Assembly: GCA_038046805.1 (NCBI GenBank)
Contig: JBBSVO010000009.1
Location: 1 to 19,600, forward strand
DNA from: Candidatus Micrarchaeota archaeon
GTDB lineage: Archaea; Micrarchaeota; Micrarchaeia; Anstonellales; Bilamarchaeaceae
DNA: 19,600 nucleotides
Direction of reading: 5' to 3'
Below, one piece after another: positions 75-19,600 of the stretch (its first letter is position 1; every line of letters begins with the position of its first letter). The position numbers and the translations under genes are program-made. Below the pieces are notes generated by a model. The model saw nothing but the letters and a program-made list of their open reading frames with translations. It was not told the DNA's origin and did not search any database.

Positions 75-1313
75 TCAAAACCCCAGCAAAAACTCATAAA
101 CCGGTACGAATCGAACGTCTTCGTTTTTTCCTCGTTTATCCTTTGTAACTACTATCGCTTCTCTGCACTTATACTTCTTACAGAACTTTTGCAATCCTTT
201 GTTTTGACTCGGTTGGTTCCTGTATTTTACTTCTACAGGAATTGTTTCCTTCTCCAGCTGAAGTATGATATCAACCTCGTCCTTGTATTTGTCTCTCCAG
301 AAGAATTTAGTATCCGTTGCAAGAACACACGTTGTTTCTATCAACTTGCCCATCCTTTCCTCGCTCTCCTCAGTTAATACGGGGCTAAGAAATGTAGGAT
401 AAAATTTCTTCAATGATTTTTCAGAGGTTAATCGATTTCTAGAAAAATTGTACAATTTTACAACTAAATGCGCCATTTCTAGGTATTCGAAGTATTTTGA
501 AAGCGTTTGCCTGCTTATTCCAAGTTCCTGGGATAATGACGAAAAGTCTACAATCATCCCGGGGTTATCAATAAGAATATCCAGTATCTTTATCAATTGT
601 GCTGTGTTCTCTATCGGGTAGATCTTGGCCATGTCCTTGAACACTATTTTTTCTATTATTGTGGTTTTTATGTAGTGCTTAACAAGTTCTTTGTCTTCCT
701 TTCCTATCAGTTCAGGGAATCCGCCACAAAGAAGATAATTACCTAATTCCATCCTTAGTTCAATATCATATAATCTAGGATTTTTTGCCATTTCTGCCTT
801 TCCAATGAAATTCAAATACTCGCTAAAACTTAGTTTTTTTACCTCAAACTCATAAATCCTTCCAGCCAAGCTTTCTCGCGTTCCTTTGCGTAAGAATAAT
901 GATTCAGAGCCAGATACGAATATCTTGTACTTTTTAGTGTCGTAGAGAATTTTTACCTTCTCAGCCCAATTTGAGATTTTCTGTACTTCGTCAAAAATCA
1001 GGAATTTTGGTTCTTTCTTGTATATCTCCTTAAAGATATCCAGTACGTCGTAAAGTTCGATGTCTCCAAAATCATCGAATGAAAAATAGAGGATAGAGTC
1101 TGGAGGGTTCTCTTTTAGCAGATCGTGGATTACTTTTTGAAGTATCGTCGTTTTCCCTACTCTCCTAAGTCCGCAGAGTGAGACGATCTGAGGTTCTTTT
1201 ATGAATTTCTTTAATTTTCCATAAATCTCTCGATCTTTGTATTCCACTTTGATTGGAGCCTTCCAGAATGGGTTGAATTCCTTTAATGATCTTTCGACCT
1301 TTTCGTTAACCAT
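75..1313 (-). CDS. AAA+ ATPase (AAA_14) with DUF4143 / PD-(D/E)XK-like C-terminus
   Basis: Walker A GLRRVGKT, Walker B LIFDEVQ, VSGS, ESLAGR, GGFPE, an HTH-like segment LSQELGISRQTL and C-terminal EVDIIL..IPVEVKY. ATG at 1313 is preceded by GGTGAT (the ORF track starts at GTG 1322). Confidence 0.9.
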   Translation of the reverse strand: MVNEKVERSLKEFNPFWKAPIKVEYKDREIYGKLKKFIKEPQIVSLCGLRRVGKTTILQKVIHDLLKENPPDSILYFSFDDFGDIELYDVLDIFKEIYKKEPKFLIFDEVQKISNWAEKVKILYDTKKYKIFVSGSESLFLRKGTRESLAGRIYEFEVKKLSFSEYLNFIGKAEMAKNPRLYDIELRMELGNYLLCGGFPELIGKEDKELVKHYIKTTIIEKIVFKDMAKIYPIENTAQLIKILDILIDNPGMIVDFSSLSQELGISRQTLSKYFEYLEMAHLVVKLYNFSRNRLTSEKSLKKFYPTFLSPVLTEESEERMGKLIETTCVLATDTKFFWRDKYKDEVDIILQLEKETIPVEVKYRNQPSQNKGLQKFCKKYKCREAIVVTKDKRGKNEDVRFVPVYEFLLGF

Positions 1314-1368
1314 AATCACCACATAGTAGATTTCACGTTAATCTCATTCATCATTAAGTAGAACTAAG

Positions 1369-4507: not shown

Positions 4508-5053
4508 ATGGATTATAAACATTCCGCTCCATTATCTATCAACATGCGTAGAATGGTTCGTCCTGCTTTTGCTGATTGCAATCTACGGGTTTCTACTGGT
4601 CAATCATTTGTTTTCACAGAGAGGCCCGAGAGATACGTAAGGCCACCCAGCGGGCGAACAGGAAAAGGGCGCATTTACACTCAAGAAGAAGTTTGGGAAA
4701 GGGCCAAACAGGATCTCAGCAAAGAAAATCCATGGATACTCGGAAACAGGGTGCCCCCCTGCTTTTGGGAGAGCAAGGACAATAGGGTAAGGGCAGTGGG
4801 TATTCTGGTTCAAAAGTCTGGTCGGGAAGGAAAGAGTTTAAGGGACATTACCTATCGGGATTTCTGTCGAATTGGTCTAAACACGCTTATGCGGCAATAC
4901 TATAGAAGCTCTCCTTTTGAGGCATTTCTTGAGGCTGAACTGGTCAGTGAGGACCAAAGAACGTCTTTTTCGGTTGATAAGAGAATGGAATGCCTGAAAC
5001 TCCGCCATGGTGCGCAAACGCCCGCAGATGCAAAACCGGAAACAGGAACATGA
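4508..5053 (+). CDS. Hypothetical protein with a DUF4046-like repeat unit
   Basis: VPPCFWESKDNRVRAV..L..DF...GL..LM..YY.SSPFEA resembles the DUF4046 repeat pattern as I recall it; not searched. Confidence 0.5.
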   Translation: MDYKHSAPLSINMRRMVRPAFADCNLRVSTGQSFVFTERPERYVRPPSGRTGKGRIYTQEEVWERAKQDLSKENPWILGNRVPPCFWESKDNRVRAVGILVQKSGREGKSLRDITYRDFCRIGLNTLMRQYYRSSPFEAFLEAELVSEDQRTSFSVDKRMECLKLRHGAQTPADAKPETGT

Positions 5054-6914: not shown

Positions 6915-6924
6915 TGTGATCTTA

Positions 6925-7914
6925 ATGGATACTGAAAAAACCGAAAACAGGAAAAAGGAACACGTTGAGGCTGTGTTGCAATATAGCGCGCAATATTCAA
7001 AGAGCACGGGCCTGGAAAAATTCGAATTTCTTCATAACGCACTTCCCGAAGCCGATTATCTGAAGATAGATTTGTCATGTAAATTCCTTGGAAAACCACT
7101 TTCTTATCCTCTTATGATAACTGGCATGACTGGCGGGTATCTGGGTGCAGAGCAAATAAATAAGAGCCTGGCAGAGTTCGCTGAAAAACACGGAATAGCA
7201 TTCGGACTTGGTTCGCAAAGAGCGATGATTGAAAACCCGGCAATGAAAAAAACATATTATGTCCGCGATGTTGCTCCGAAAACGCTTTTGATTGCAAATA
7301 TCGGCGCATGCCAGCTTAGGAAATATTCTTTTGAAAAAATAGAAAAGATGGTTTCAGATGTTGATGCGGATGCGCTGGCAATCCATCTTAATCCTTTGCA
7401 AGAAGTAATCCAGCCAGAAGGCAATACTAATTTTGAAGGAGTTCTTTCGGCTATTTCTAAAATATGTGGGAAACTTTCTGTTCCGGTTATTGTAAAAGAG
7501 ACTGGCGCGGGCATAAGCATGGAAGTTGCAATTAAATTAAAAGATGCTGGAGTACAGGCAATTGATGTATCTGGTTCTGGCGGCACTTCCTGGAGCGCGG
7601 TTGAATATCTTCGTGGAGGGGCAACTCCTGGTTTTGAGAATTGGGGAATTCCAACTGCGGAATCCATAACAATGTGCAGAGGAGTTCTTCCATTGATTGC
7701 AAGCGGGGGAATAAGAAGCGGAATAGATGCGGCAAAGGCAATAGCGCTTGGTGCAGAGATTGTGGGTGCGGCTTATCCATTCCTTCTTGCGCTTAAGAAG
7801 AAGCGTCTTGATGATGAGCTAATCCAATGGGAGAACCAGATGAAGATCTGCGCATTCTTGACTGGCTCGAAGAATCACGCGAGCCTGAAGGCAGCGAAAA
7901 TGCGAGTGTTGTAG
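6925..7914 (+). CDS. fni: Type 2 isopentenyl-diphosphate delta-isomerase (FMN-dependent)
   Basis: RKKEHV, HNALPE, ITGMTGG, GLGSQR, ANIG, HLNPLQE..QPEG, VKETGAG, GGTSW, ASGGIRSG. Confidence 0.97.
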   Translation: MDTEKTENRKKEHVEAVLQYSAQYSKSTGLEKFEFLHNALPEADYLKIDLSCKFLGKPLSYPLMITGMTGGYLGAEQINKSLAEFAEKHGIAFGLGSQRAMIENPAMKKTYYVRDVAPKTLLIANIGACQLRKYSFEKIEKMVSDVDADALAIHLNPLQEVIQPEGNTNFEGVLSAISKICGKLSVPVIVKETGAGISMEVAIKLKDAGVQAIDVSGSGGTSWSAVEYLRGGATPGFENWGIPTAESITMCRGVLPLIASGGIRSGIDAAKAIALGAEIVGAAYPFLLALKKKRLDDELIQWENQMKICAFLTGSKNHASLKAAKMRVL

Positions 7915-7941
7915 ATAAAGATTATAGGCAAAAGTCATAGG

Positions 7942-7949
7942 TTTATAAA
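7942..7949 (+). promoter_or_regulatory. TATA box for the RSH gene (near-leaderless)
   Basis: TTTATAAA ending 26 nt before ATG 7976. Confidence 0.55.
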
Positions 7950-7975
7950 GAGTTTGTGGTTAAAGATATAATGCT

Positions 7976-10000
7976 ATGGCCCATAAATCTAAAACTATAA
8001 CTAGGGCAGATACCCCCATTCGTAATGCACTAGACAAATTAGGGTTTTCCCCTGTTAATAGAAGCCCTGCATATGAAACTGGGTTAGACCTAATCGAGGA
8101 ACGAAGAGCAAAAGCCCTACTCCAGGTAACGAATTTTGTCAGATCGCCTAACAGTCCGGAAGATGTAAAAGACTTTGATAAACATGTTTGTGAGGTTCTG
8201 GTTAAGGCGATTGTACAAGACATACTCTCCCCTGAAAAAATACCCGAAGAATTGCAAAAACGCAACAACTTACGAGAGAATCTGTTGTTGGTTGACCTAA
8301 TGATATGGCATACCTTTTCTGATGCAACCCACGTTGTACCAGTTGACATGTTGGAACTTCCTCTGACTGGTGGATTTGACGGCAGATATATTGCTGCTTT
8401 TAAAAGTGATCAAAAGTTGTTTTGGAGATTGAGAGAACTTGATACGGCCCCCGGATTTACGTTACAAGATTATAAGGATGCAATTTCTTCATGCGATCCA
8501 TCCCAAGTACTTCGTGTACTGAGGGCAAGATGCCTGGATAATTCAACACTGGTAGATGAATCTGCGGTTCCATTATATGCAGGAGTAACTGGTACTGGAT
8601 TTGAAAAACCATCTGCTGTAGACTGGGCGCAAACAAGAACAAATGTTGCAGAGTCTGTGTTGAATTTCTGGGTAAATATTGCAGATTATATTGGCCATCA
8701 TCCATTGGTTGCAGATATGAAGGATTTTGCAGTAAAAACTTTATATCCAGGTATTTGGGATTATGCAAGATACGAATTACATAAATTAGCTAATCAGATA
8801 GATACAACTAAGGATATGATGTCCGAAATGAAACAGGAATTAGAAGACGCGCTTAAGGCCAGAGGTATAGATGCGGAAGTTATAGTACGGGAAAAATCAA
8901 AAGGTAGTTTGGGATTGAAGGTCAGAGAAAGGACAGAATCACTGATAAAAACGGATCTCTACAACTCTATTGGATTACCACGTGAAAACATAGAGGTTCG
9001 CATCACTGACCCGCGAGTAAATGAAATCGTAGAGGGCGAAAAGGGGATTACAATCTCGTTGTGCGGAGTTCCGGCGAAAGTAGAATTGGTAGAAGAAGGT
9101 TTTCGTATAAAATATTCTTTTCCAACAGACGACTGTGGAAGTTTTGAAGCCGGTTCTTGTCATACCAATCAAGTTGGTCACTGGCAGAATGGGCCCAGCA
9201 TATTTCGTCCATCAGTCGAGTTTTTGAACGATCTAATCGCTGGAAAAATTGTGGTCAAATCCATTAAAGGAAACACACGTGAGCAGGATCTTATAAGTTG
9301 GTTATACTCAATAAATGGCGAAGTTCTAGGGCCAATTATATATCGCATATTGAGAGAATATAATATAACTGAATCTCATACGTCAATACACGACTTTTTC
9401 AAACGACCCGATAAAGAGTATGTTTCATTGCATGTAGATACGCGTCATCCACACGGTTTACCCTTACCTTCTTTCGTTCCATTTGAATGGATCCTTCGCA
9501 CAGAAAAAATTGACAGAGAATGCGAACATGGAAAGTATCCCCATATAAGATACAAAGAAGAAGGAAAAGGCAAAGGCGCGCGACCTGATGTCGTAAAGTT
9601 TGTGATGGGACTAGGGGATCGACTTCTTACTAAAGCAAATGCAAAACCAGTTCAGGAAGGTCCGAAAGAAAAGCATTTCAAAGTAAACGTAAATGTAGGA
9701 GGATGCAATCTAGTCTCGGTGAGCGTCAAAGATGGAGAAACATTTCTTGATGCTTTGGCTAAGGCAGTTCAGTTAGGGGGTGTTGCCCGAGTAACTGATA
9801 AATCCGGAACTCCAGTCACATTATCAGTGCCTGTAATACGGGATTGTGAGCTTGTAGTCGTGATGGCAACAACCCAGAATGACGCAATGTTTGTCCAGCA
9901 CAACCTGGCGAGAAGTCTGATTGAGTTTTGTAAAACCCCTGGAGCGCAGAAACAATTAAGGGACATAATGAATGGCGGCAAAGGCCGAGGGAAAAAATAA
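7976..10000 (+). CDS. Divergent long RelA/SpoT homolog: pseudo-HD + (p)ppGpp synthetase-like + TGS + helical segment
   Basis: Collinear RSH motifs: AESVLNFWVNIADYIG..MKDFAVKTLYP; GIDAEVIVREKSKGSLGLK; LNDLIAGKIVV; DFFKRPDKEYVSLH; FEWILRT..ECEHG..HIRYKE; TGS-like KDGETFLDA..GTPVTLS; LIEFCKTPGAQKQLR. Confidence 0.8.
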   Translation: MAHKSKTITRADTPIRNALDKLGFSPVNRSPAYETGLDLIEERRAKALLQVTNFVRSPNSPEDVKDFDKHVCEVLVKAIVQDILSPEKIPEELQKRNNLRENLLLVDLMIWHTFSDATHVVPVDMLELPLTGGFDGRYIAAFKSDQKLFWRLRELDTAPGFTLQDYKDAISSCDPSQVLRVLRARCLDNSTLVDESAVPLYAGVTGTGFEKPSAVDWAQTRTNVAESVLNFWVNIADYIGHHPLVADMKDFAVKTLYPGIWDYARYELHKLANQIDTTKDMMSEMKQELEDALKARGIDAEVIVREKSKGSLGLKVRERTESLIKTDLYNSIGLPRENIEVRITDPRVNEIVEGEKGITISLCGVPAKVELVEEGFRIKYSFPTDDCGSFEAGSCHTNQVGHWQNGPSIFRPSVEFLNDLIAGKIVVKSIKGNTREQDLISWLYSINGEVLGPIIYRILREYNITESHTSIHDFFKRPDKEYVSLHVDTRHPHGLPLPSFVPFEWILRTEKIDRECEHGKYPHIRYKEEGKGKGARPDVVKFVMGLGDRLLTKANAKPVQEGPKEKHFKVNVNVGGCNLVSVSVKDGETFLDALAKAVQLGGVARVTDKSGTPVTLSVPVIRDCELVVVMATTQNDAMFVQHNLARSLIEFCKTPGAQKQLRDIMNGGKGRGKK

Positions 10001-10003
10001 ACC

Positions 10004-10489
10004 TCATATCTCCCTGAACTCAAACGGGTCTTTTACCACATTCAGCACAATGCTTGTGTTCGTTCTTTGAACATGCGGGATTGACAGAATTTTCTTAATA
10101 AGCGCACTGAGTTCGTTTCTGCTTTTGCACAATACTAATGCAAGCGAATCATGATCCCCGGTTACATCATAAACTGCGTAAACCCCGCGCAGTTTGCTTA
10201 TTTTTTCCTGTGCCTCGAGCAGGTGTCCGCTTTCAATTCGTATATCAACCACTCCCATGAATTCATAGCCTATTTTCAGAAAATCCAGGCTTGAAACATG
10301 AGCCTTTATCACCCCGCTTTTTTCAAGACGCTTAACCCGTTCTATAAGACCTGCAGGGCTTATCCCAATCGCTCCGCTCAATTCGCGATATGACCTGCGG
10401 CAGTTTGTGCGGAACTCCAATAATATCCTCCTGTCTGTCTCGTCGAGCTCAACCTGCTCCTCATTCGTTTTCGTTTGTTTGGTTTTCAT
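10004..10489 (-). CDS. Lrp/AsnC family transcriptional regulator
   Basis: LDETDRRIL..RRSYRELSGAIGIS..ERVKRLEKSGVI HTH; VYDVTGDHD and RTNTSIVL RAM domain; GGGGGTGA SD. Confidence 0.95.
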   Translation of the reverse strand: MKTKQTKTNEEQVELDETDRRILLEFRTNCRRSYRELSGAIGISPAGLIERVKRLEKSGVIKAHVSSLDFLKIGYEFMGVVDIRIESGHLLEAQEKISKLRGVYAVYDVTGDHDSLALVLCKSRNELSALIKKILSIPHVQRTNTSIVLNVVKDPFEFREI

Positions 10490-10612: not shown

Positions 10613-10743
10613 CAGAGATTCCACTGGTCTTGTGACCAGTGGTACACAAGTAATGCATAATCTAACGGTGGAATCTCTGCCTGTCAAAAACAAGCCAACG
10701 GTCTCTGACCGGTGGTTTTTGACAAGTCCAGTCTTTGGACTTG
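10613..10743 (+). promoter_or_regulatory. Structured glnA 5' leader (cis-regulatory RNA candidate)
   Basis: Perfect stems 10613-24/10668-79 (12 bp), 10621-29/10634-42 (9 bp), 10682-91/10715-24 (10 bp) and 10723-30/10736-43 (8 bp). Confidence 0.6.
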
Positions 10744-10779
10744 ATTGGTTTTGAATTTCAACTTGTTTGGGGTGGGAGC

Positions 10780-12225
10780 ATGGATGAAAAGGAAAAAAAT
10801 GGAAAAACCGGGAGTGATATAACTGTTTTATACAAGAAGGATGGGTTGGAGCTTACGGATATCAAGTTCGTTGACCTTCTTGGGATGTGGCATCATTTTA
10901 CCGTGCCTTCAGACTCGCTGAATTTTGACGGGAACGATGTTTTGCCGTTTGATGGCTCTTCCATAAAGGGATTTCAGGATATCCATGAAAGTGACATGTC
11001 TTTGATACCAGACCTTTCAACTTATTTTGTTGATCCGTTTTCTTCGAGAAGTTTGAGCCTTACTTGCGATGTTTATGATCCGGTAAAAAAGGAATTTTAT
11101 TCAAGAGACCCACGATATGTCGCAAAAAAAGCCGAGAATTACCTAAAAGAAACAGGAGTCGGGGATACAGCCTGTTTTGGTCCAGAACTGGAATTTTTCA
11201 TTTTTGACAGCATGAGATATGACCAGAACGAATATTCTGGGTATTATCATCTTGATTCTGCTGAAGGAATCTGGAATTCCGGCCAGGATGGCGATGGAAA
11301 CGGCGGACGAAACCTTGGCTACAAGCAGAGATTCAAAGAAGGGTATTTTCCGGTTTCCCCGCACGATAGCATCCATGAACTAAGAAATGACATGGTTTTT
11401 CTTATGCGCAAGGTTGGATTAACTGTTGAAAGACACCATCACGAAGTCGCAACCGCGGGCCAGTGCGAAATAGGAATAAAGTATGCCTCGCTGACAAAGG
11501 CTGCTGACAATGTCATGCTCTATAAGTATGCAGTTAAGAACGTTGCGAAAGAGCACGGAAAAGTCGCAACATTCATGCCAAAACCGCTTTTCAATGACAA
11601 CGGCTCTGGAATGCATGTTCATCAAAGCATCTGGAAGGGCGGAAAAAATATTTTTGCTGGAGACGGTTATGCGGGCCTGAGTGAAACCGCACTTTATTAT
11701 ATTGGCGGGCTTATTGAACATGCACCTGCACTTTGCGGGCTTTTGAATCCAACGACAAATTCATACAAGAGGCTTGTGCCGGGATTTGAGGCACCGGTTA
11801 ATCTTGCTTACAGCTATAGAAACCGCAGTGCGGCAATAAGAATCCCAGTAACCGAGGAAAACGGAAGCGGTGCATCAAAACGAATAGAATACCGACCGCC
11901 AGACCCAAGCTGCAATCCCTACCTTGCATTCGCGGCAATGCTGATGGCCGGTATGGACGGGGTAAAGAGAAAACTTCACCCGGGAGAGCCGGTGGACTAT
12001 GATATCTACCATCACAAGGAAAACGGAAGAAAAATAGAAACCCTTCCAGGAAGGCTTGAAGATTCTTTGGATGCACTTGAAAGCGATCATGCGTTTTTGC
12101 TTGAAGGAAATGTGTTTACAAAAGACCTTCTTGAAACCTGGATTGACATACGAAGAAAGCGCGATGTTGATGCGATACGATTAAGGCCGCATCCCTGGGA
12201 GTTTCATCTGTATCACGACGTTTGA
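10780..12225 (+). CDS. glnA: Type I glutamine synthetase
   Basis: FDGSSI, GPELEFFIF, HHHEVATAGQCEI, TFMPKP..DNGSGMHVHQS, NSYKRLVPGFEAP, RNRSAAIRIP, RIEYRPPDPSCNPYL; ATG 10780 follows a GGGGTG SD. Confidence 0.98.
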   Translation: MDEKEKNGKTGSDITVLYKKDGLELTDIKFVDLLGMWHHFTVPSDSLNFDGNDVLPFDGSSIKGFQDIHESDMSLIPDLSTYFVDPFSSRSLSLTCDVYDPVKKEFYSRDPRYVAKKAENYLKETGVGDTACFGPELEFFIFDSMRYDQNEYSGYYHLDSAEGIWNSGQDGDGNGGRNLGYKQRFKEGYFPVSPHDSIHELRNDMVFLMRKVGLTVERHHHEVATAGQCEIGIKYASLTKAADNVMLYKYAVKNVAKEHGKVATFMPKPLFNDNGSGMHVHQSIWKGGKNIFAGDGYAGLSETALYYIGGLIEHAPALCGLLNPTTNSYKRLVPGFEAPVNLAYSYRNRSAAIRIPVTEENGSGASKRIEYRPPDPSCNPYLAFAAMLMAGMDGVKRKLHPGEPVDYDIYHHKENGRKIETLPGRLEDSLDALESDHAFLLEGNVFTKDLLETWIDIRRKRDVDAIRLRPHPWEFHLYHDV

Positions 12226-12901: not shown

Positions 12902-13279
12902 TCATATTTGGTCTTCCGTGAATTCAGCCACTGTTCGAGGCTTGCTCCGGTCTATTGAAATTTTATATCCTTCGTTCTTTTTCTCCATCGTGACTTTGAT
13001 GTATTCCCCATCATCCGCCTTCAATCCGCCGCGGATTTTCTCGCAAATATTTTTTTCTATTTCCGCGACGAATGCTTTCACTTTTTTCTCATCATTTGTC
13101 GGAACGCGGAACGAATAACCGCTTCCGTTCATAACTCCATTTGCCATGCTGTCGCATACGTTTGGTGGAAACGTGAATCCGAAATTCAGCTTCCGCGCAG
13201 CTTTTTGAAGTTCCACGACTATACCAGCTTCGCTAATCCCTTTCTGTTGCGGTTGCTCGTGTTCTATTGGCTGTGGCAT
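12902..13279 (-). CDS. Hypothetical protein (125 aa)
   Basis: ORF with protein-like composition; ATG 13279 avoids overlap with the divergent hydrogenase gene. Confidence 0.65.
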   Translation of the reverse strand: MPQPIEHEQPQQKGISEAGIVVELQKAARKLNFGFTFPPNVCDSMANGVMNGSGYSFRVPTNDEKKVKAFVAEIEKNICEKIRGGLKADDGEYIKVTMEKKNEGYKISIDRSKPRTVAEFTEDQI

Positions 13280-13331
13280 ATCAATTTTTCCGCAGGCTAT
13301 GTTTTTAATGTTTAGTTCTGATTCAACATGT

Positions 13332-13826
13332 ATGCCTTCAAAAGTAAAAAAGAAAAAGCTCAGAATCGGCTGGTTCACATTTACTTGTTCAGAGGACAGC
13401 TCGATAATACTCCTTGAGCTTCTTAACGAACATTACTTTGAATGGAAAGAAAGAATAGATTTCGCGCATTGCAAGATGCTTAAATCAAAAAACGATTCAA
13501 CAAATCTTGACGTTGCCTTTGTGGAAGGCGCTATTTCAACCGATACGGAAAAGAAAAAACTATCCGAAATCAGAAAAAATGCAAAAAAGCTCGTCGCTGT
13601 TGGCGCCTGCGCCTGCACGGGCATGCCATCGTCTCAGCGGAACAATTTTGATGAGAAAACAAAAAATGAAATAGAAGATTTCCTGCGGCAGCACAGCCTG
13701 TGGTCAAATGTTCTCACAGTAAAGGACGTCGTTAATGCGGATGATTCCCTTCCAGGCTGTCCGATGGATGGAAAAATGTTCGTTTCATTGATTGACAGGT
13801 ATTTTGTAGAGTTCGGGGTTGTATAA
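13332..13826 (+). CDS. [NiFe]-hydrogenase small subunit, proximal-cluster domain only (group 3b delta-like)
   Basis: RIGWFTFTCSED, DVAFVEGAI, LVAVGACACTG, LPGCP; no medial or distal FeS domain. Confidence 0.88.
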   Translation: MPSKVKKKKLRIGWFTFTCSEDSSIILLELLNEHYFEWKERIDFAHCKMLKSKNDSTNLDVAFVEGAISTDTEKKKLSEIRKNAKKLVAVGACACTGMPSSQRNNFDEKTKNEIEDFLRQHSLWSNVLTVKDVVNADDSLPGCPMDGKMFVSLIDRYFVEFGVV

Positions 13827-15119
13827 ATGCACGGACCAGATTTTGATATTACAATAGAAAATCTCAGCAAGATTGAAGGGCATACTTCACTTGATGTGGA
13901 AGTAAAGGATGGCCGAGTCACCAAAGTTCATCTGGAGATAAACGAAAACAAGCGTTTTTTCACCCAGGCAATCCGCGGAAAGCCGGCAATTTCCGCGCCG
14001 CAAACCCTTTCCCGCATTTGTGGAACCTGTAGTATCGCCCATCATATGTGCTGCATCGAGGCTGTGGAAAACGCCTTTGGAGTAACCCCGTCCGACCAGA
14101 CAATGGAATTGCGTCATCTTCTGATGAACGGACTTATGATCCGTGATCATGCGATGCACCTGTATCTTTTCTGCCTGCCGGATGTTTTTGGAAAAGATTC
14201 GATTCTTGATTTCTCAGATAAAGGGGCAGAACACGAACTGATTCACAAGGCATTTGACATAAAATCTGTTGGCAATGACCTCAGCACAATTGTTGGTGGA
14301 AGGGCAGTCCATGCGCCATTTCCTGTTGTTGGCGGATTCCTGAAAATCCCGGAAAAAGAAGCCATGCGCGCACTTCTTCCAAAACTGCGCGCAGTTCGGG
14401 ATGCTGCAATTGAATTTGTTGATATTTTCTTGAATTGCCGATTTTCCCTTGAAAACGATGGCGCGTTTGTTTCACTTATCAATCGGGATTACAATTTCCT
14501 CGGAGATGAGCTTGCGACTTCGCTTGGCATTTGCATTCCAGAACATAGATTCGCGGATTATCTTGCAAAATCAGTTATTCCGTATTCCCAGGCCCCTGGC
14601 TTCAGGTTTGAAGGGATGCCCTATAGTGTCGGTGCACTTGCAAGAATGAATCTTAATGGAAGCAGCTTAAGGCCGGAAACAAAAAAATCTCTTCCAAAGG
14701 CGATTTCTGTTTTTCCATCTAAAAATACGTTTCATAATAATCTTGCGCAGGCCATAGAAGTTGTTCATTGTATAGATGCCAGTATTGAAACTATCGAATC
14801 GCTTGATATCAAACCAGAAACTTCATTGCAGGTAAAGCCAAAGGCAGGAACAGGTGTCGGAGTAATCGAAGCCCCCCGTGGAACGCTTTATTATCATCTT
14901 GATGTTGCGCAGGATGGAAAGGTAAATCGGGCGAATCTTGTTATTCCAACAGCCCAAAACCAGGTTAAAATGGAAAAGGATATAGGTGTGCTCGTAAATC
15001 AGTGCCTTAAGCGCAAGATGCCACGAGATAAAATATCCTTTGAGATAGAAAAACTCATTCGTGCGTATGATCCGTGCATGAGCTGCGCTACACACTTTTT
15101 GAAAGTAAATTGGAGATGA
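13827..15119 (+). CDS. [NiFe]-hydrogenase large subunit (group 3b alpha-like)
   Basis: KIEGH, L1 SRICGTCSIAH, EAPRGTLYY, IPTAQN, L2 RAYDPCMSCATH followed by a short cleavable tail FLKVNWR. Confidence 0.95.
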   Translation: MHGPDFDITIENLSKIEGHTSLDVEVKDGRVTKVHLEINENKRFFTQAIRGKPAISAPQTLSRICGTCSIAHHMCCIEAVENAFGVTPSDQTMELRHLLMNGLMIRDHAMHLYLFCLPDVFGKDSILDFSDKGAEHELIHKAFDIKSVGNDLSTIVGGRAVHAPFPVVGGFLKIPEKEAMRALLPKLRAVRDAAIEFVDIFLNCRFSLENDGAFVSLINRDYNFLGDELATSLGICIPEHRFADYLAKSVIPYSQAPGFRFEGMPYSVGALARMNLNGSSLRPETKKSLPKAISVFPSKNTFHNNLAQAIEVVHCIDASIETIESLDIKPETSLQVKPKAGTGVGVIEAPRGTLYYHLDVAQDGKVNRANLVIPTAQNQVKMEKDIGVLVNQCLKRKMPRDKISFEIEKLIRAYDPCMSCATHFLKVNWR

Positions 15120-15123
15120 TTCT

Positions 15124-15690
15124 ATGATAACCCGGGAAGATGCATTAAAACTTCTGGAAAAATATAATCAGGATAAATCCGATTTCATTCATTACCTCGA
15201 AAGTGAGGTGATAATGGGCGCGCTTGCAAAAAGATTTGGAGAAGATGAAACCTATTGGAAAATGCTGGGTTTGCTCCATGATGTGGACTGGGGCATAACA
15301 AAAGAAGACTCGAAACAACATCTTACAAAAGCCCCGGAAATTCTAAGAAGTGCTGGTTTTGATGAGAAATTTATCAATACTGTTTTATCTCATGGATATG
15401 GCTGGGATTGCGCGGGTTTGAAAGAAAAATGTCGAACCGAAAAAGTGGAATACGCGCTTGCTTGTGCAGAAACCGTTACTGGGTTGGTTCATGCATACGC
15501 CCTAATGCGCAAAAGCTTGGAAGGCATGGAAGTTTCAGGTTTAAAAAAGAAATTCAAGGATAAAAAATTTGCTGCAGGAATTCATCGGGAAATAATTCTA
15601 GAATGCGAAAAACTGGGGTTGACTTTGGAGGAATTTCTGGATCTCGCAATAAAATCAATTCAGTCGATATCAAAAGAAATCGGATTTTGA
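15124..15690 (+). CDS. HD-domain (HDIG) predicted hydrolase, COG2316-like
   Basis: TREDALKLL..H..E.IM.ALA..FGEDETYW..GLLHDVDW..SH..KKFKDKKFAAG. Confidence 0.85.
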   Translation: MITREDALKLLEKYNQDKSDFIHYLESEVIMGALAKRFGEDETYWKMLGLLHDVDWGITKEDSKQHLTKAPEILRSAGFDEKFINTVLSHGYGWDCAGLKEKCRTEKVEYALACAETVTGLVHAYALMRKSLEGMEVSGLKKKFKDKKFAAGIHREIILECEKLGLTLEEFLDLAIKSIQSISKEIGF

Positions 15691-16068
15691 AGTTAATGCC
15701 TCTTTGACTTCCTTCACAGCCCTTTTCTTCTCATACACACTCGGTATTGCAATTATTCTCACGGTTTTTATCTTTCCAATCTTCTTCAGAAGTTTTAGAG
15801 TAACAGCTAAATCAAAATCATGCATCGAATAGGACGGAGATTTTTCCAGTCTGTCCATGTCTGTTAATTCCGTTACTTTTTTTATTCCGCTTGCAACGTC
15901 GAGTATTGTTATGTCTGGTCCTTCATCTTCAAGATTTTCGGCAGTATCAAACTCCACGAACTCAATACCTTTTCCGCGTAATTCTGCATCGTGTTCAAGT
16001 GCATGCGCAACGCTCAATGCAAGCGAATCTTTTTTCACAAGCGCGTTTCCGAAGACGAGAATCTTCAT
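15670..16068 (-). CDS. Hydrogenase maturation protease-like protein (HyaD/HycI fold)
   Basis: MKILVFGNALVKKDS, ITILDV, YSMHDFDL; located next to the hydrogenase genes. Confidence 0.8.
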   Translation of the reverse strand: MKILVFGNALVKKDSLALSVAHALEHDAELRGKGIEFVEFDTAENLEDEGPDITILDVASGIKKVTELTDMDRLEKSPSYSMHDFDLAVTLKLLKKIGKIKTVRIIAIPSVYEKKRAVKEVKEALTSKSDFF

Positions 16069-16751
16069 AAAATCAGCTGAGCCAGTGCCTGGCCCATAAT
16101 AAACGCCCCAATCGTTACACTGAATACTCCGCAGACCACCTGGGCAATACCAATTTTATTCGCTTTTGCCATCATTGATATAGGAATTGCCATAACTGCG
16201 GTTATTGCAGTCATCCCAATCGTAGTTCCAATACCAAATGCGAGGACGTATCCAAGGCCCTCTGTTAGTCCGCTTGCGCTTGATGCTACTATTATCAGCA
16301 TGGCCGCACTTCCCGCAAACCCATGCATAATTCCAACAAGGAACGACCTTTTTTCATGGTTGTGTTCATGTCCTTTTTCAAAAATATGCTGGTGAATATG
16401 GATATGGCCGATTCCGTCGTGAATATGTTCGTGGCTGTGTACTCCCGCACTCATTGCTTTCTTTATGGTCAGTACACCTAGGACCAAAAGCATAACCCCG
16501 ACAAAAGCCTCTGCATTATTTTGTAATACAGCCGGGAATTCGAATCCTATTACAAGCATTCCGATTACTGCCGCAAGAAGGGTTATTGTGTGTCCAAATC
16601 CCCATATAATTCCGAGCGCTGCTGATTCCAGAATCTTTTTCTTTTCGCTTACAATAGTTGAAACTGCAGCAACGTGGTCAGCATCAAGTGCATGGGTTAT
16701 ACCAAGAACAAGTCCTGCAAATGCAAGCGATGCAATTTCTTCCATATACAT
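16065..16751 (-). CDS. Nickel/cobalt transporter (NiCoT/UreH-like)
   Basis: HALDADHVAAV signature, WGFGH, a His-rich loop, VGIMHGFAGSAA; 4-nt overlap with the protease gene. Confidence 0.88.
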   Translation of the reverse strand: MYMEEIASLAFAGLVLGITHALDADHVAAVSTIVSEKKKILESAALGIIWGFGHTITLLAAVIGMLVIGFEFPAVLQNNAEAFVGVMLLVLGVLTIKKAMSAGVHSHEHIHDGIGHIHIHQHIFEKGHEHNHEKRSFLVGIMHGFAGSAAMLIIVASSASGLTEGLGYVLAFGIGTTIGMTAITAVMAIPISMMAKANKIGIAQVVCGVFSVTIGAFIMGQALAQLIL

Positions 16752-16833
16752 CTACTCGAACCATACTTATAAAAATCCTAATTTCCATCTATTTACTTAC
16801 TTTATGATTAGTGTGTAGAATGAAGTGATACTT

Positions 16834-18276
16834 ATGGAACAACCAAAACTCAAAAAGATTGATAACGCAATTTGGATGATGGAGCAGCACGACACCATGA
16901 AAGTGCCTGCATATATTTTTGCGAATGATAACCTAATAGGAAAGATGCAAACTGATAGAACTCTTCTTCAACTTAAGAATGTCGCGAGTCTGGAAGGAAT
17001 CGTTAAAAGTGCAATGGTAATGCCTGATGGTCACGAAGGATATGGCTTCCCTATAGGCGGAGTTGCCGCGTTTGATGCGGAAACTGGTGTAGTAAGTCCT
17101 GGCGGGATTGGCTACGATATCAATTGCGGCGTTCGTCTACTAAAGACCACACTCACCGAAAGCGATGTGCGGCCAAAAATAAAGGAAATCTGTGACAAAC
17201 TTTTCATAAATGTTCCAAGCGGGGTAGGAAGCGAGGGAAGGATTCGCATTTCTCATGACGAACTGGACGATGCAGTTATTCGCGGAGTTGGCTGGGCGAT
17301 TGAAAAGGGATATGGTACAGAAGAAGACAAGCAGCATACTGAAGAATACGGCTGCATTCCGGATGCAAATCCAAAAATAGTTACTCCAACTGCTAAAAAG
17401 CGCGGTAAATCCCAGTTTGGAACTCTTGGCGCAGGTAATCATTTCCTTGAAATCCAGGTTGTAGATAAAATTCTAAATCCCGTGGCTGCAAAGGCGTTTG
17501 GTTTGCACGAAGGACAAATTACAGTTATGATTCACTGTGGTTCTCGTGGTTATGGTCATCAAATTTGCACGGATAATCTTGGTTCAATGCTTGGCCTTGC
17601 GCAGAAAATGAATCTCTGGCTTCCTGACAAAGAGCTTGTTTATGCACCGCTTAATACTCCGGAAGCGAAAAATTACATGGACGGAATGCGTTGTGCAGTT
17701 AATTTTGCATTTACAAACCGCCATATTATCGCGCACTGGACGCGCGAAACGTTCGGGCAGGTTTTCGGAAAATCAGTTGGAGATAATATGCCGCTCCTTT
17801 ACGATGTTGCGCACAACATTGCGAAATTCGAGGAACATAATGTTGATGGCAAGCGAAGGAAATTGATTGTTCATAGAAAAGGTGCAACGAGGGCATTTCC
17901 AGCAGGAAGAGAAGAGTTGCCGCCAGTTTACCGTTCAATTGGACAACCGGTTCTTATTCCTGGCAGCATGGGGACTTCGAGTTATATTCTTGTTGGAAAC
18001 CAGAAAGGTCTTGATGTTTCCTGGGGAACTACCTGTCATGGTGCAGGAAGAGCGATGAGTCGTGGAGACGCAATACGAAAATACATTGGTGCGAATCTTA
18101 CAAAGGACCTGTGGGATAATAAGAGTATTTACATCAGAGCAACTGAGCCAAAGGTTGTTGCTGAAGAGGCGCCTGATGCTTACAAGAACGTGGACGATGT
18201 AGTGGAAAGCGTTGCCTCTGCCGGGATTAGCGATATTGTCGCAAAATTAAGACCGATTGGGGTTGTGAAGGGTTGA
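16834..18276 (+). CDS. rtcB: RNA-splicing ligase RtcB
   Basis: MPDGHEGYGFPIGGV, GYDINCGVR, GTLGAGNHFLE, HCGSRG, AHN, HRKGATRA, PGSMG, HGAGR; ATG 16834 follows GTGAT. Confidence 0.97.
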   Translation: MEQPKLKKIDNAIWMMEQHDTMKVPAYIFANDNLIGKMQTDRTLLQLKNVASLEGIVKSAMVMPDGHEGYGFPIGGVAAFDAETGVVSPGGIGYDINCGVRLLKTTLTESDVRPKIKEICDKLFINVPSGVGSEGRIRISHDELDDAVIRGVGWAIEKGYGTEEDKQHTEEYGCIPDANPKIVTPTAKKRGKSQFGTLGAGNHFLEIQVVDKILNPVAAKAFGLHEGQITVMIHCGSRGYGHQICTDNLGSMLGLAQKMNLWLPDKELVYAPLNTPEAKNYMDGMRCAVNFAFTNRHIIAHWTRETFGQVFGKSVGDNMPLLYDVAHNIAKFEEHNVDGKRRKLIVHRKGATRAFPAGREELPPVYRSIGQPVLIPGSMGTSSYILVGNQKGLDVSWGTTCHGAGRAMSRGDAIRKYIGANLTKDLWDNKSIYIRATEPKVVAEEAPDAYKNVDDVVESVASAGISDIVAKLRPIGVVKG

Positions 18277-18817: not shown

Positions 18818-19082
18818 CTCCTTTGATTTTCCGCTTTCCAATTTTTCCAATGTGTGTGACAAATTGAAAATTTTGGAGGTGATCTATCCGCAGGTTCCCC
18901 TACGGATACCTTGTTACGACTTAGCCCCCCTCACGTCCCTTCGGTTCGAGCTAGGCAAGAACCTAGGCCTCACCGAAGAAACATTTGGGTGACTTGACGG
19001 GCGGTGTGTGCAAGGAGCGGGGACGCATTCACCGCGAGATGATGGCTCGCGATTACTAGGGATTCCATCTTCATGAGGGTGA

Positions 19083-19119
19083 TTTGCCCAAATCAGTTTC
19101 CTGTTTGAAACTGGATTGT
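19083..19119 (-). other. 16S BHB-like intron (37 nt), about E. coli 1320/1321
   Basis: Removal restores GAGGGUUGCAAC|UCACCCUC; internal hairpin CAGUUUC/GAAACUG. Confidence 0.8.
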
Positions 19120-19188
19120 GTTGCAACCCTCAATCCGAACCACGGGTAGATTTAGAGGATTAGCTTCTCCTTTCGGAGTTGCAGCCCA

Positions 19189-19229
19189 TTCTACCACGCT
19201 CCAGCATTTATAGTTACGCTGTCGCGCGT
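19189..19229 (-). other. 16S BHB-like intron (41 nt), about E. coli 1251/1252
   Basis: Removal restores GGGUAGAACAA|UGGG; closing helix CGCGC/GCGUG, inner CAGCGU/AUGCUG. Confidence 0.8.
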
Positions 19230-19372
19230 TTGTTCTACCCAATGTATGCCGCGTGTAGCCCAAGGGATTCGGACCATACTGACCTACCGTCGCCCACTTC
19301 TTCCTCTCACTTAACGCGAGCAGTCTCTTTAGAGTGCACCTTTCCCGGAGGAAAAGTTAGCAACTAAAAACA

Positions 19373-19404
<32 letters not shown>

Positions 19405-19406
19405 AA

Positions 19407-19441
19407 TTTATGCCAATTTGTTCTCGTGATAGAACAAAATG
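19407..19441 (-). other. 16S BHB intron (35 nt), about E. coli 1081/1082
   Basis: Removal restores GUGUGAA|UUGUCCUGUUAAG; central helix UGUG/CAUA, bulges AA|C and AA|U, hairpin UUUGUUCU/AGAACAAA. Confidence 0.85.
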
Positions 19442-19569
19442 TTCACACCACGAGCTGACGATGGCCATGCAATACCTCTCGGCTTGTTAGGCAAGATCTT
19501 TAGTCTGACCTTCATTCTGCCGTCGCCCTTGGTGATGTTTCCGGCGTTGTATCCAATTGAACCGTAGCA

Positions 19570-19600
<31 letters not shown>

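Follow-up and report, generated by a model that had tools for sequence, protein, structure and literature searches.

The stretch of DNA considered here, hereafter the window, comprises the first 19,600 nt of contig JBBSVO010000009.1 from a Candidatus Micrarchaeota genome of the family Bilamarchaeaceae (assembly GCA_038046805.1; 1.2 Mb, 86% complete). Between the genes of a type 2 isopentenyl pyrophosphate (IPP) isomerase (IDI-2) and a convergent Lrp/AsnC regulator, the latter followed by the glutamine synthetase GlnA, lies an open reading frame encoding a divergent long RelA/SpoT homologue (RSH), named P0001 (Table 1). In the comparisons below, G000 denotes the genome of the window, f1 its Micrarchaeota family and G294 the only congeneric genome, compared over 262 kb, about a fifth. 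Three features emerged beyond those described in a first-pass annotation of the gene: an insert of ~90 residues in the catalytic loop, an f1-wide gene family at a fixed locus, and the cassette-like exchange of its alleles.

Table 1. Features of the RSH gene and its surroundings in the window
Feature	Position	Strand	Remarks
Divergent long RSH, 674 aa	7976..10000	+	Pseudo-HD, SYNTH with insert, TGS-like, first AH helices
TATA box TTTATAAA	7942..7949	+	34 nt 5' of the ATG
Pseudo-hydrolase domain, residues ~31-260	8066..8755	+	H70, H112, D188 kept; HD Asp replaced by T113
Synthetase part 1, residues 261-317	8756..8926	+	Syn1 R305, K307, S311, K315
Alpha/beta insert of ~90 aa, catalytic loop between K315 and D419	8927..9220	+	Most variable folded part
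Synthetase part 2, residues 416-530	9221..9565	+	D419, Y482, H486, E504, G519, H523 kept
TGS-like beta-grasp domain	9662..9880	+	Without the tRNA-CCA-reading His
First AH-domain helices, then short basic tail	9881..9979	+	No ZFD or ACT/RRM
Exchanged interval	7914..10005	.	DNA homology with G294 ends at 7913, returns at 10006
Type 2 IPP isomerase (IDI-2)	6916..7914	+	Conserved upstream flank
Lrp/AsnC regulator	10004..10489	-	Conserved convergent downstream flank
Glutamine synthetase GlnA	10735..12225	+	Conserved downstream flank

As defined in a passage of PMC3153485, a long RSH carries an HD-type domain followed by the RelA/SpoT synthetase (SYNTH) domain, with or without C-terminal domains, and this is the order found in P0001. 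The NCBIfam model TIGR00691 matches the protein clearly (E 2e-11) and Pfam RelA_SpoT weakly (E 0.054); scores fall under the curated cut-offs of TIGR00691 (42.9 vs 499 bits), PRK11092 (30.3 vs 947), PRK10872 (12.4 vs 728) and PF04607 (14.2 vs 27 bits). Used as a single sequence, P0001 retrieved nothing meaningful from the PDB; a family profile was required, and the one built from 17 sequences matches E. coli RelA at E 4.6e-34, its best PDB sequence match. HHalign aligned the insert-bearing clade with 22 canonical Rels at 99.8% probability over residues 162-666. The AlphaFold model, computed from a 111-sequence alignment (predicted local distance difference test, pLDDT, 89; predicted template-modelling score, pTM, 0.81), superposes on the catalytic regions of Rel with Z scores of 16-17.5, the best being the N-terminal domain of B. 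subtilis Rel (Z 17.5, root-mean-square deviation, rmsd, 4.4, 317 residues aligned), compared with 9-11 for small synthetases, 9.2 for CapRel and 8.2 for Tas1 (6ox6). Residues 565-673 match Rel 391-489, which spans the TGS domain and the start of the helical domain (Z 8.6, rmsd 2.9, 97 aligned). P0001 has the RSH nucleotidyltransferase fold and is confirmed as a real long RelA/SpoT homologue; the motifs on which the first-pass annotation had based this identity map onto it as described, from H70 to Y526. Its closest named relatives are from Ca. Micrarchaeota and Ca. Bilamarchaeaceae (P0011, a gene of the f1 genome G404). Frameshifted pieces of P0001, otherwise identical (P0153-P0156), lie on two other contigs and possibly reflect sequencing indels.

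Residues were counted over 104 sequences, i.e. 118 matches minus 14 duplicate or cut copies, with an f1 subset of 71 sequences from 62 genomes; numbers such as Asp264, Glu323 and Gln325 follow Rel, and those such as D419, E504 and I506 follow P0001. The HD motif of the hydrolase domain reads H112-T113 in P0001, which lacks the intact HD motif and ExD catalytic pair of a bifunctional Rel/SpoT. Canonical hydrolysis is very unlikely, because only 1/71 f1 sequences has the HD Asp and conservation is lacking at the catalytic ExD, Arg and Asn positions; the family-wide pattern agrees with the dead hydrolase proposed earlier from the single sequence. The remaining metal-ligand positions are His53 (54/71), His77 (57/71) and Asp144 (59/71), numbers which we take to be those of Rel. 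P0001 has all three, and a residual metal-binding or structural site is possible.

In the synthetase domain, the donor and metal side is almost invariant across f1 (Lys243, Asp264 and Glu323 in 71/71, Lys251 in 70/71), counts which are somewhat inflated because the collecting profile favours sequences with those residues. The acceptor side varies, with Tyr308 (presumably so numbered in Rel) in 66/71, His312 in 65/71, Lys304 in 52/71, Gln325 in 42/71 (Ile in 22/71) and Asn306 in 30/71, and the position of the adenine-stacking Arg269 holds Arg in 27, Thr in 28 and Lys in 10 of the 71 sequences. The roles of these residues were drawn from parts of PMC13299517, where the essential carboxylates are D264 and E323, the former ordered by loop 254-266, and of bioRxiv 10.1101/670703, whose Y329 corresponds to Tyr308 and in which R277A is damaging in T. 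thermophilus Rel. P0001 retains all donor-side residues, including the carboxylates D419 and E504 and the basic residues of Syn1, plus the Tyr and the SxH motif (Tyr308 and His312 equivalents). Its G-loop is one residue shorter and without the equivalents of Lys304, Asn306 and Gly307, Arg269 is replaced by K424, and Gln325 by I506 within E504-W-I506; Y526 was also mapped. P0003 and P0004 additionally lack the Syn5 Tyr, and all three proteins keep every Mg/ATP-side catalytic residue despite 42-57% identity in the region. An altered substrate specificity, as suggested by the first-pass annotation, is possible: the equivalents of Asn306, Lys304 and Gln325 are indeed changed, but the Gln-to-Ile replacement is common in the family and the guanosine-type SxH of Syn3 is kept. 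At the positions of the (p)ppApp synthetase (Apk) signatures outlined in PMC12226406, i.e. RYT in Syn2, GxN in Syn3 and YH in Syn4, P0001 has AGK, SLH and LR. The acceptor is not settled by sequence, because tRNA-targeting toxic small alarmone synthetases (toxSAS) are described, in part of bioRxiv 2021.04.30.441581, as having no clear sequence signature.

The synthetase domain is interrupted by the insert. K315 and D419 are separated by 103 residues in P0001 versus 12 in 12/12 canonical Rels, and across the set the Syn1-Syn2 loop has a median length of 20 and a maximum of 137 residues. Twelve proteins carry an insert of 85-103 residues and, together with one short-loop member, form a clade (Shimodaira-Hasegawa-like approximate likelihood ratio test, SH-aLRT, 99) in a quick tree with long branches. 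The insert folds confidently within the full model, with a pLDDT of 77 when folded alone. A structural search of 48,161 chains returned no clear fold match (best Z 4.6), Foldseek against PDB and BFVD gave nothing at E 0.001 or better, and all atlas matches were under 0.9, results which do not prove that the insert is a new fold. Because the ordering of the loop in Rel positions the essential Asp, as described in part of PMC13299517, the insert is well placed to gate catalysis and may do so.

ZFD and ACT/RRM are absent since P0001 ends after the region equivalent to Rel 391-489, in agreement with the truncated C-terminus noted before. The TGS fold, which had been read as a retained tRNA-sensing module, is present as well, but the sensing is not supported: the CCA-reading His is missing from P0001 and from every f1 member having a TGS region, and it occurs only in the canonical-type Rels of another family, f20 (6/6). 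According to part of PMC7797070, this His (H420/H432) reads the CCA end of deacylated tRNA and its substitution abolishes activation. Many family members end after SYNTH, without TGS. P0001 is thus devoid of the TGS His, full AH, ZFD and RRM/ACT which define a ribosome-activated stringent factor; without the TGS His, ZFD and ACT it would receive no ribosome-tRNA input. A net charge of at least +4 in the last 12 residues was found in 37% of the 41 members of at least 500 aa, as opposed to 6% of 749 genome proteins; the tail of P0001 has only +3.

A search with P0001 alone found relatives in 16/401 Micrarchaeota genomes, and a profile search in 96/401, including 61 of the 75 other f1 genomes and none of the 94, 83 and 30 genomes of three large Micrarchaeota families. 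With a deeper profile the gene was detected in 84/99 f1 genomes, a few by weak or partial matches. It lies within 2.5 kb of IDI-2 in 39/62 f1 genomes and of Lrp in 28/62, counts limited by flank length and contig ends, and in genera g3, g4, g6 and g16 it occupies another fixed site. When six profile-negative genomes were rechecked at IDI-2, an RSH of even greater divergence turned up in that slot in two of them, while in the other four IDI-2 has a different context with no RSH in the stretch fetched. These two slot genes, L203:3656-5428 (+) in G169 and L205:3409-5061 (-) in G087, are missed by the family profiles and by NCBIfam; they keep the catalytic Lys, Asp and Glu, have Trp in place of the Syn3 Tyr and have lost the His. 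The rarity of such genes in archaea, asserted in the first-pass annotation, holds for published work but not for f1, where the gene is near-universal at its locus. Several g5 genomes contain tandem copies of different deep types (A+B, A+T, A+C, B+T) between IDI-2 and Lrp, at loci L122-L127, L171, L172 and L179. A recent transfer from bacteria was rejected, the family being syntenic and widespread with its nearest relatives in Micrarchaeota. The Rels of f20, found in six genomes (L072-L079), have HD, SYNTH, a TGS with its His, and ACT, and in the tree they fall with canonical sequences (SH-aLRT 99). They have Arg or Lys at the ExD Glu position, and the G391 copy carries a ~250-aa N-terminal extension.

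Comparison with G294 delimits an interval covering the gene, inside which homology is limited to two ~250-nt patches (66-70% identity) and the promoter core. The two RSH proteins are 45.8% identical, the fifth lowest value of 148 orthologue pairs (median 89.6%), between immediate flanks with 91-94% identity. Of their 119 four-fold synonymous sites, 29% are identical (28% at random); among 139 genes with at least 40 such sites no value is lower, and the immediate flanks overall have 50-73%, with 58%, 50% and 58% in IDI-2, Lrp and GlnA (binomial P 3e-10 vs 58%). Since synonymous sites are saturated between conserved flanks, the two alleles are older than the split of the genomes. On L161 and L162 the flanking genes are 100% identical to G294 and segments of the RSH have diverged, from codon 192 onward in L161 (synonymous divergence, dS, 1.0; ratio of nonsynonymous to synonymous divergence, dN/dS, 0.15) and at codons 133-181 in L162 (dS 0.66, dN/dS 0.13). 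With P0157 and P0158, all four combinations of both diverged patches occur. The simplest account of this pattern is that one species has two deep alleles and that recombinants or assembly chimeras have arisen from them. Over residues 126-317, P0004 shares 85-91% identity with the G294 allele; in the insert the value is 27%, and there P0004 is closer to P0001 (41%). Both whole and partial exchange of alleles is hence observed. Several contigs end in or at the RSH gene (L064, L080, L101, L109, L117, L161, L162, L196), which may fit alleles mixed in populations.

Other pairs depart from their flanks in either direction. The T-type copy of G419/G341 is more diverged than its surroundings (72% vs 88-90%); the RSH of G286/G109 (86% vs 60-74%) and the RSH block of G222/G292 (92-95% vs 48-72%) are less diverged. 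Five close pairs show vertical descent (G276/G341, G129/G160, G185/G037, G062/G257, G299/G289), with RSH synonymous identity similar to that of the flanks, and the other genome pairs examined are near synonymous saturation. For f1 pairs with IDI-2 72-78% identical, the median RSH identity is 23% (39 pairs), partly through paralogue sorting. The alleles are under purifying selection; site-wise positive selection in place was rejected for G000/G294, as synonymous sites are saturated and all pairwise dN/dS values are at most 0.38. Mutual exclusivity of B- and T-type alleles was also rejected, G414 having both in tandem. Mapping RSH type on the IDI-2 tree of 20 g5 genomes gave 7 changes, where shuffling gave a mean of 8.9 and reached 7 or fewer in 10% of cases; this is a weak test.

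The archaeal promoter attributed to the gene is real, with its own TATA box. TATA spacing in G000 has its mode at -29 to -31 and a shoulder to -35 (496 genes), which places the RSH at the edge of the peak, and the same ~21-nt promoter core precedes the G294 allele. The gene ranks 125 in codon-usage atypicality, and its GC content at third codon positions (GC3) is 0.33 against a genome median of 0.40. Contigs of an aquifer metatranscriptome run cover 8638-9058, 9253-9545 and 9688-9944 at a depth of 2-2.7, with the neighbours alike; they were not counted as expression evidence, as DNA carry-over is possible. Elsewhere in the window, positions 75-1322 (-) encode an AAA_14/DUF4143 ATPase with codon usage among the most atypical of the genome (rank 30/600). 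Two open reading frames have no Pfam or NCBIfam match: one at 4508-5053, replaced or highly diverged in the G294-type species (39% amino acid and 35% four-fold identity), and one at 12902-13378, where the alignment is patchy. NiFe hydrogenase small and large subunits, an HD protein, a maturation-protease-like gene and a NicO-like transporter occupy 13299-16751, followed by RtcB at 16825-18276 and, at 18874-19600 (-), by an archaeal 16S rRNA gene of which the contig end leaves only the 3' part.

A possible hydrolytic partner is encoded elsewhere in G000. After the tyrosyl-tRNA synthetase gene (TyrRS), L001:1342-1785 (-) encodes a stand-alone 148-aa HD_4 protein with an intact HD and the Arg which part of PMC10083569 gives as typical of (p)ppGpp hydrolases. 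A 60%-identical copy follows TyrRS in G287, no match was found in G294, and with this one sequence as query 34/91 f1 genomes gave matches, many of them weak and to other HD types. A fixed synthetase-hydrolase pair across f1 is not shown by these matches. No second long RSH and no hydrolase-only long RSH was found in G000 at its present completeness. In f1 genera g8, g16 and g13, the 360-470-aa proteins at L151:814-1896, L154:625-1863 and L160:631-2046 combine an intact HD_4 domain with a C-terminal region that matches no Pfam model.

We tentatively favour, at somewhat less than an even chance, a reading in which P0001 is a cytoplasmic, hydrolase-dead, ribosome-independent and sensor-gated RSH pyrophosphotransferase which diversifies as genes in biological conflicts do. 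The enzyme would still transfer pyrophosphate from ATP, because the Mg/ATP-side residues are invariant in a family only ~20% identical. Its acceptor would most likely be GDP or GTP, given the Tyr and SxH, with guanine recognition loosened, and tRNA or adenosine acceptors are possible. The pseudo-HD domain and the domain inserted in the loop positioning the Mg-binding Asp may hold it off in cis, until the variable insert or the TGS-like domain binds some changing external cue, of which a viral or host/partner protein is the most plausible; growth arrest or dormancy would follow, and turnover of the cue would favour keeping and importing old alleles. A more specific form, which we consider speculative and doubtful, is that in Micrarchaeota of the Bilamarchaeaceae type a bacterial long RSH has become a family-wide immune or partner-recognition switch at a core locus, auto-inhibited, with the insert, its fold undescribed, as a sensor which recombination shuffles among ancient alleles. 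As the acceptor-side residues vary, these alleles may modify different substrates, such as guanine nucleotides, tRNA or other RNA. Of 17 relatives, six match the PADLOC defence candidate PDC-S33 (model PDLC04999, best E 1e-10), for which no published description was found.

Several observations weigh against conflict-type diversification. Activity, trigger and target of the RSH are inferred; P0001 itself has no PDC-S33 match, and that model may describe RSH synthetases in general. Searches of IMG/VR with patterns from three close sequences and of INPHARED phages with P0001, both reaching close relatives only, gave no relative. Defence genes are usually patchy in distribution; this gene is near-universal, and its surroundings are core metabolic genes rather than a defence island. 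Assembly chimeras of two alleles may account for part of the mosaic pattern, the existence of tandem paralogues means that differential loss explains part of the diversity, and no pair exceeds the dN/dS limit given above. P0001 has also lost more G-loop residues than the sister clade, whose member P0011 has the G-loop intact, and Lys replaces its adenine-stacking Arg. The vertical descent in five close pairs also counts against it, and would suit a (p)ppGpp synthetase with a housekeeping role in nutrient stress, independent of the ribosome and served by a separate small hydrolase, in which fast divergence reflects weak constraint outside the active site and the apparent swapping reflects ordinary recombination and paralogue sorting. 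The fixed, nearly universal position beside Lrp and GlnA, the gene's own TATA box, purifying selection, the guanosine-type SxH and Tyr, and the intact HD_4 protein with its characteristic Arg all agree with this possibility, which on balance we find doubtful but worth serious attention. The canonical Rel of f20 is conserved in the way of an ordinary gene (60-97% identity, dN/dS 0.05-0.07), unlike the f1 family, ~20% identical within one genus. Moreover, relaxed constraint alone yields neither flank-bounded synonymous saturation nor deep alleles within one species, and the small hydrolase is sporadic.

The losses in the G-loop, the replacements of Gln325 by Ile and Arg269 by Lys, the missing Syn5 Tyr of P0003 and P0004 and the Trp of the two slot occupants would also be expected if P0001, or the three-member subclade, were a pseudoenzyme or nucleotide-binding scaffold without turnover, binding partners through the insert and TGS-like domains. 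This is unlikely, as all three proteins retain their Mg/ATP-side residues, which are invariant family-wide in the profile-inflated count. Hypervariability and exchange fit host adaptation too, basic C-terminal tails are enriched and exported RSHs exist in bacteria (PMC12691689), so that an effector delivered into host or prey to drain ATP/GTP or trigger dormancy, like Tas1 or exported alarmone synthetases, was considered; it appears quite improbable. P0001 has no hydrophobic signal peptide or delivery domain visible in its sequence, no conserved adjacent small gene or immunity gene stands beside the RSH, the bulky regulatory domains are kept, and the weakly charged tail of P0001 may be a remnant AH helix. 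Least probable of all is a RelA-like stringent factor that uncharged tRNA would activate on the archaeal ribosome. P0001 does keep a TGS fold and the first AH helices, and like RelA it has a dead hydrolase, but the CCA-reading His, the remaining AH, ZFD and RRM are absent and many members have no TGS at all.

The presence of an RSH in a DPANN archaeon is already known. In part of PMC8407392, RelA/SpoT genes are reported for Diapherotrites (69.0%), Woesearchaeota (41.7%), Pacearchaeota (21.3%) and Nanoarchaeota (19.0%) and ascribed to transfer from bacteria; that passage does not list Micrarchaeota and gives no anatomy or function. Sections of other articles report only small RSHs in archaea (PMC3153485), or describe RSHs as very rare there, with (p)ppGpp not detected in two model archaea (PMC8646023). 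No published account of the f1 family, the insert or the allele exchange was found in the main texts of a mostly open literature. For specialists, the surprise would lie in the catalytic-loop insert, in a near-universal yet barely detectable family and in its cassette-like exchange. A family in about 85% of the genomes of one archaeal family offers many testable candidates for archaeal alarmone-type chemistry. Long RSHs are as a rule conserved housekeeping enzymes, like the f20 Rel here. Cassette exchange, deep alleles within a species and loop insertion would together suggest that this one takes part in virus or host conflict in DPANN symbionts, whose mechanisms of that kind are poorly known, and would reveal a new gating of RSH catalysis. 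Were the immune or partner-recognition switch real, it would have no precedent as an alarmone-type signalling or abortive system in archaea, nor as a long RSH under balancing selection.

Among known systems, the best structural matches are the bifunctional Rels (B. subtilis 8acu/6yxa, S. equisimilis 1vj7, T. thermophilus 6s2u), with which P0001 shares the essential Asp264 and Glu323, differing in its lost hydrolase chemistry and truncated C-terminus. With E. coli RelA, a monofunctional long RSH (hydrolase dead, synthetase active; 5iqr, 5kps), it has in common the order of pseudo-HD, SYNTH and TGS and the dead hydrolase; unlike RelA, it has no TGS His, ZFD or RRM, carries the loop insert, has a changed G-loop and Gln325, keeps 3/4 HD metal ligands and is exchanged between relatives. 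Tas1/Apk1 and Apk2 have the same SYNTH fold, and P0001 is without their GxN, RYT and YH signatures, delivery domain and adjacent immunity gene. CapRel (7ztb, 9erv) and the toxSAS FaRel2/PhRel resemble it, beyond the SYNTH fold, only in the proposed logic. In CapRel, a variable sensor domain inhibits the RSH synthetase in cis until a phage protein relieves the inhibition. Patchy and mobile, CapRel consists of a small synthetase plus a pseudo-ZBD, whereas P0001 is a long RSH, resides at a core locus and has its candidate sensor inside SYNTH, and its fold is closer to Rel than to toxSAS.

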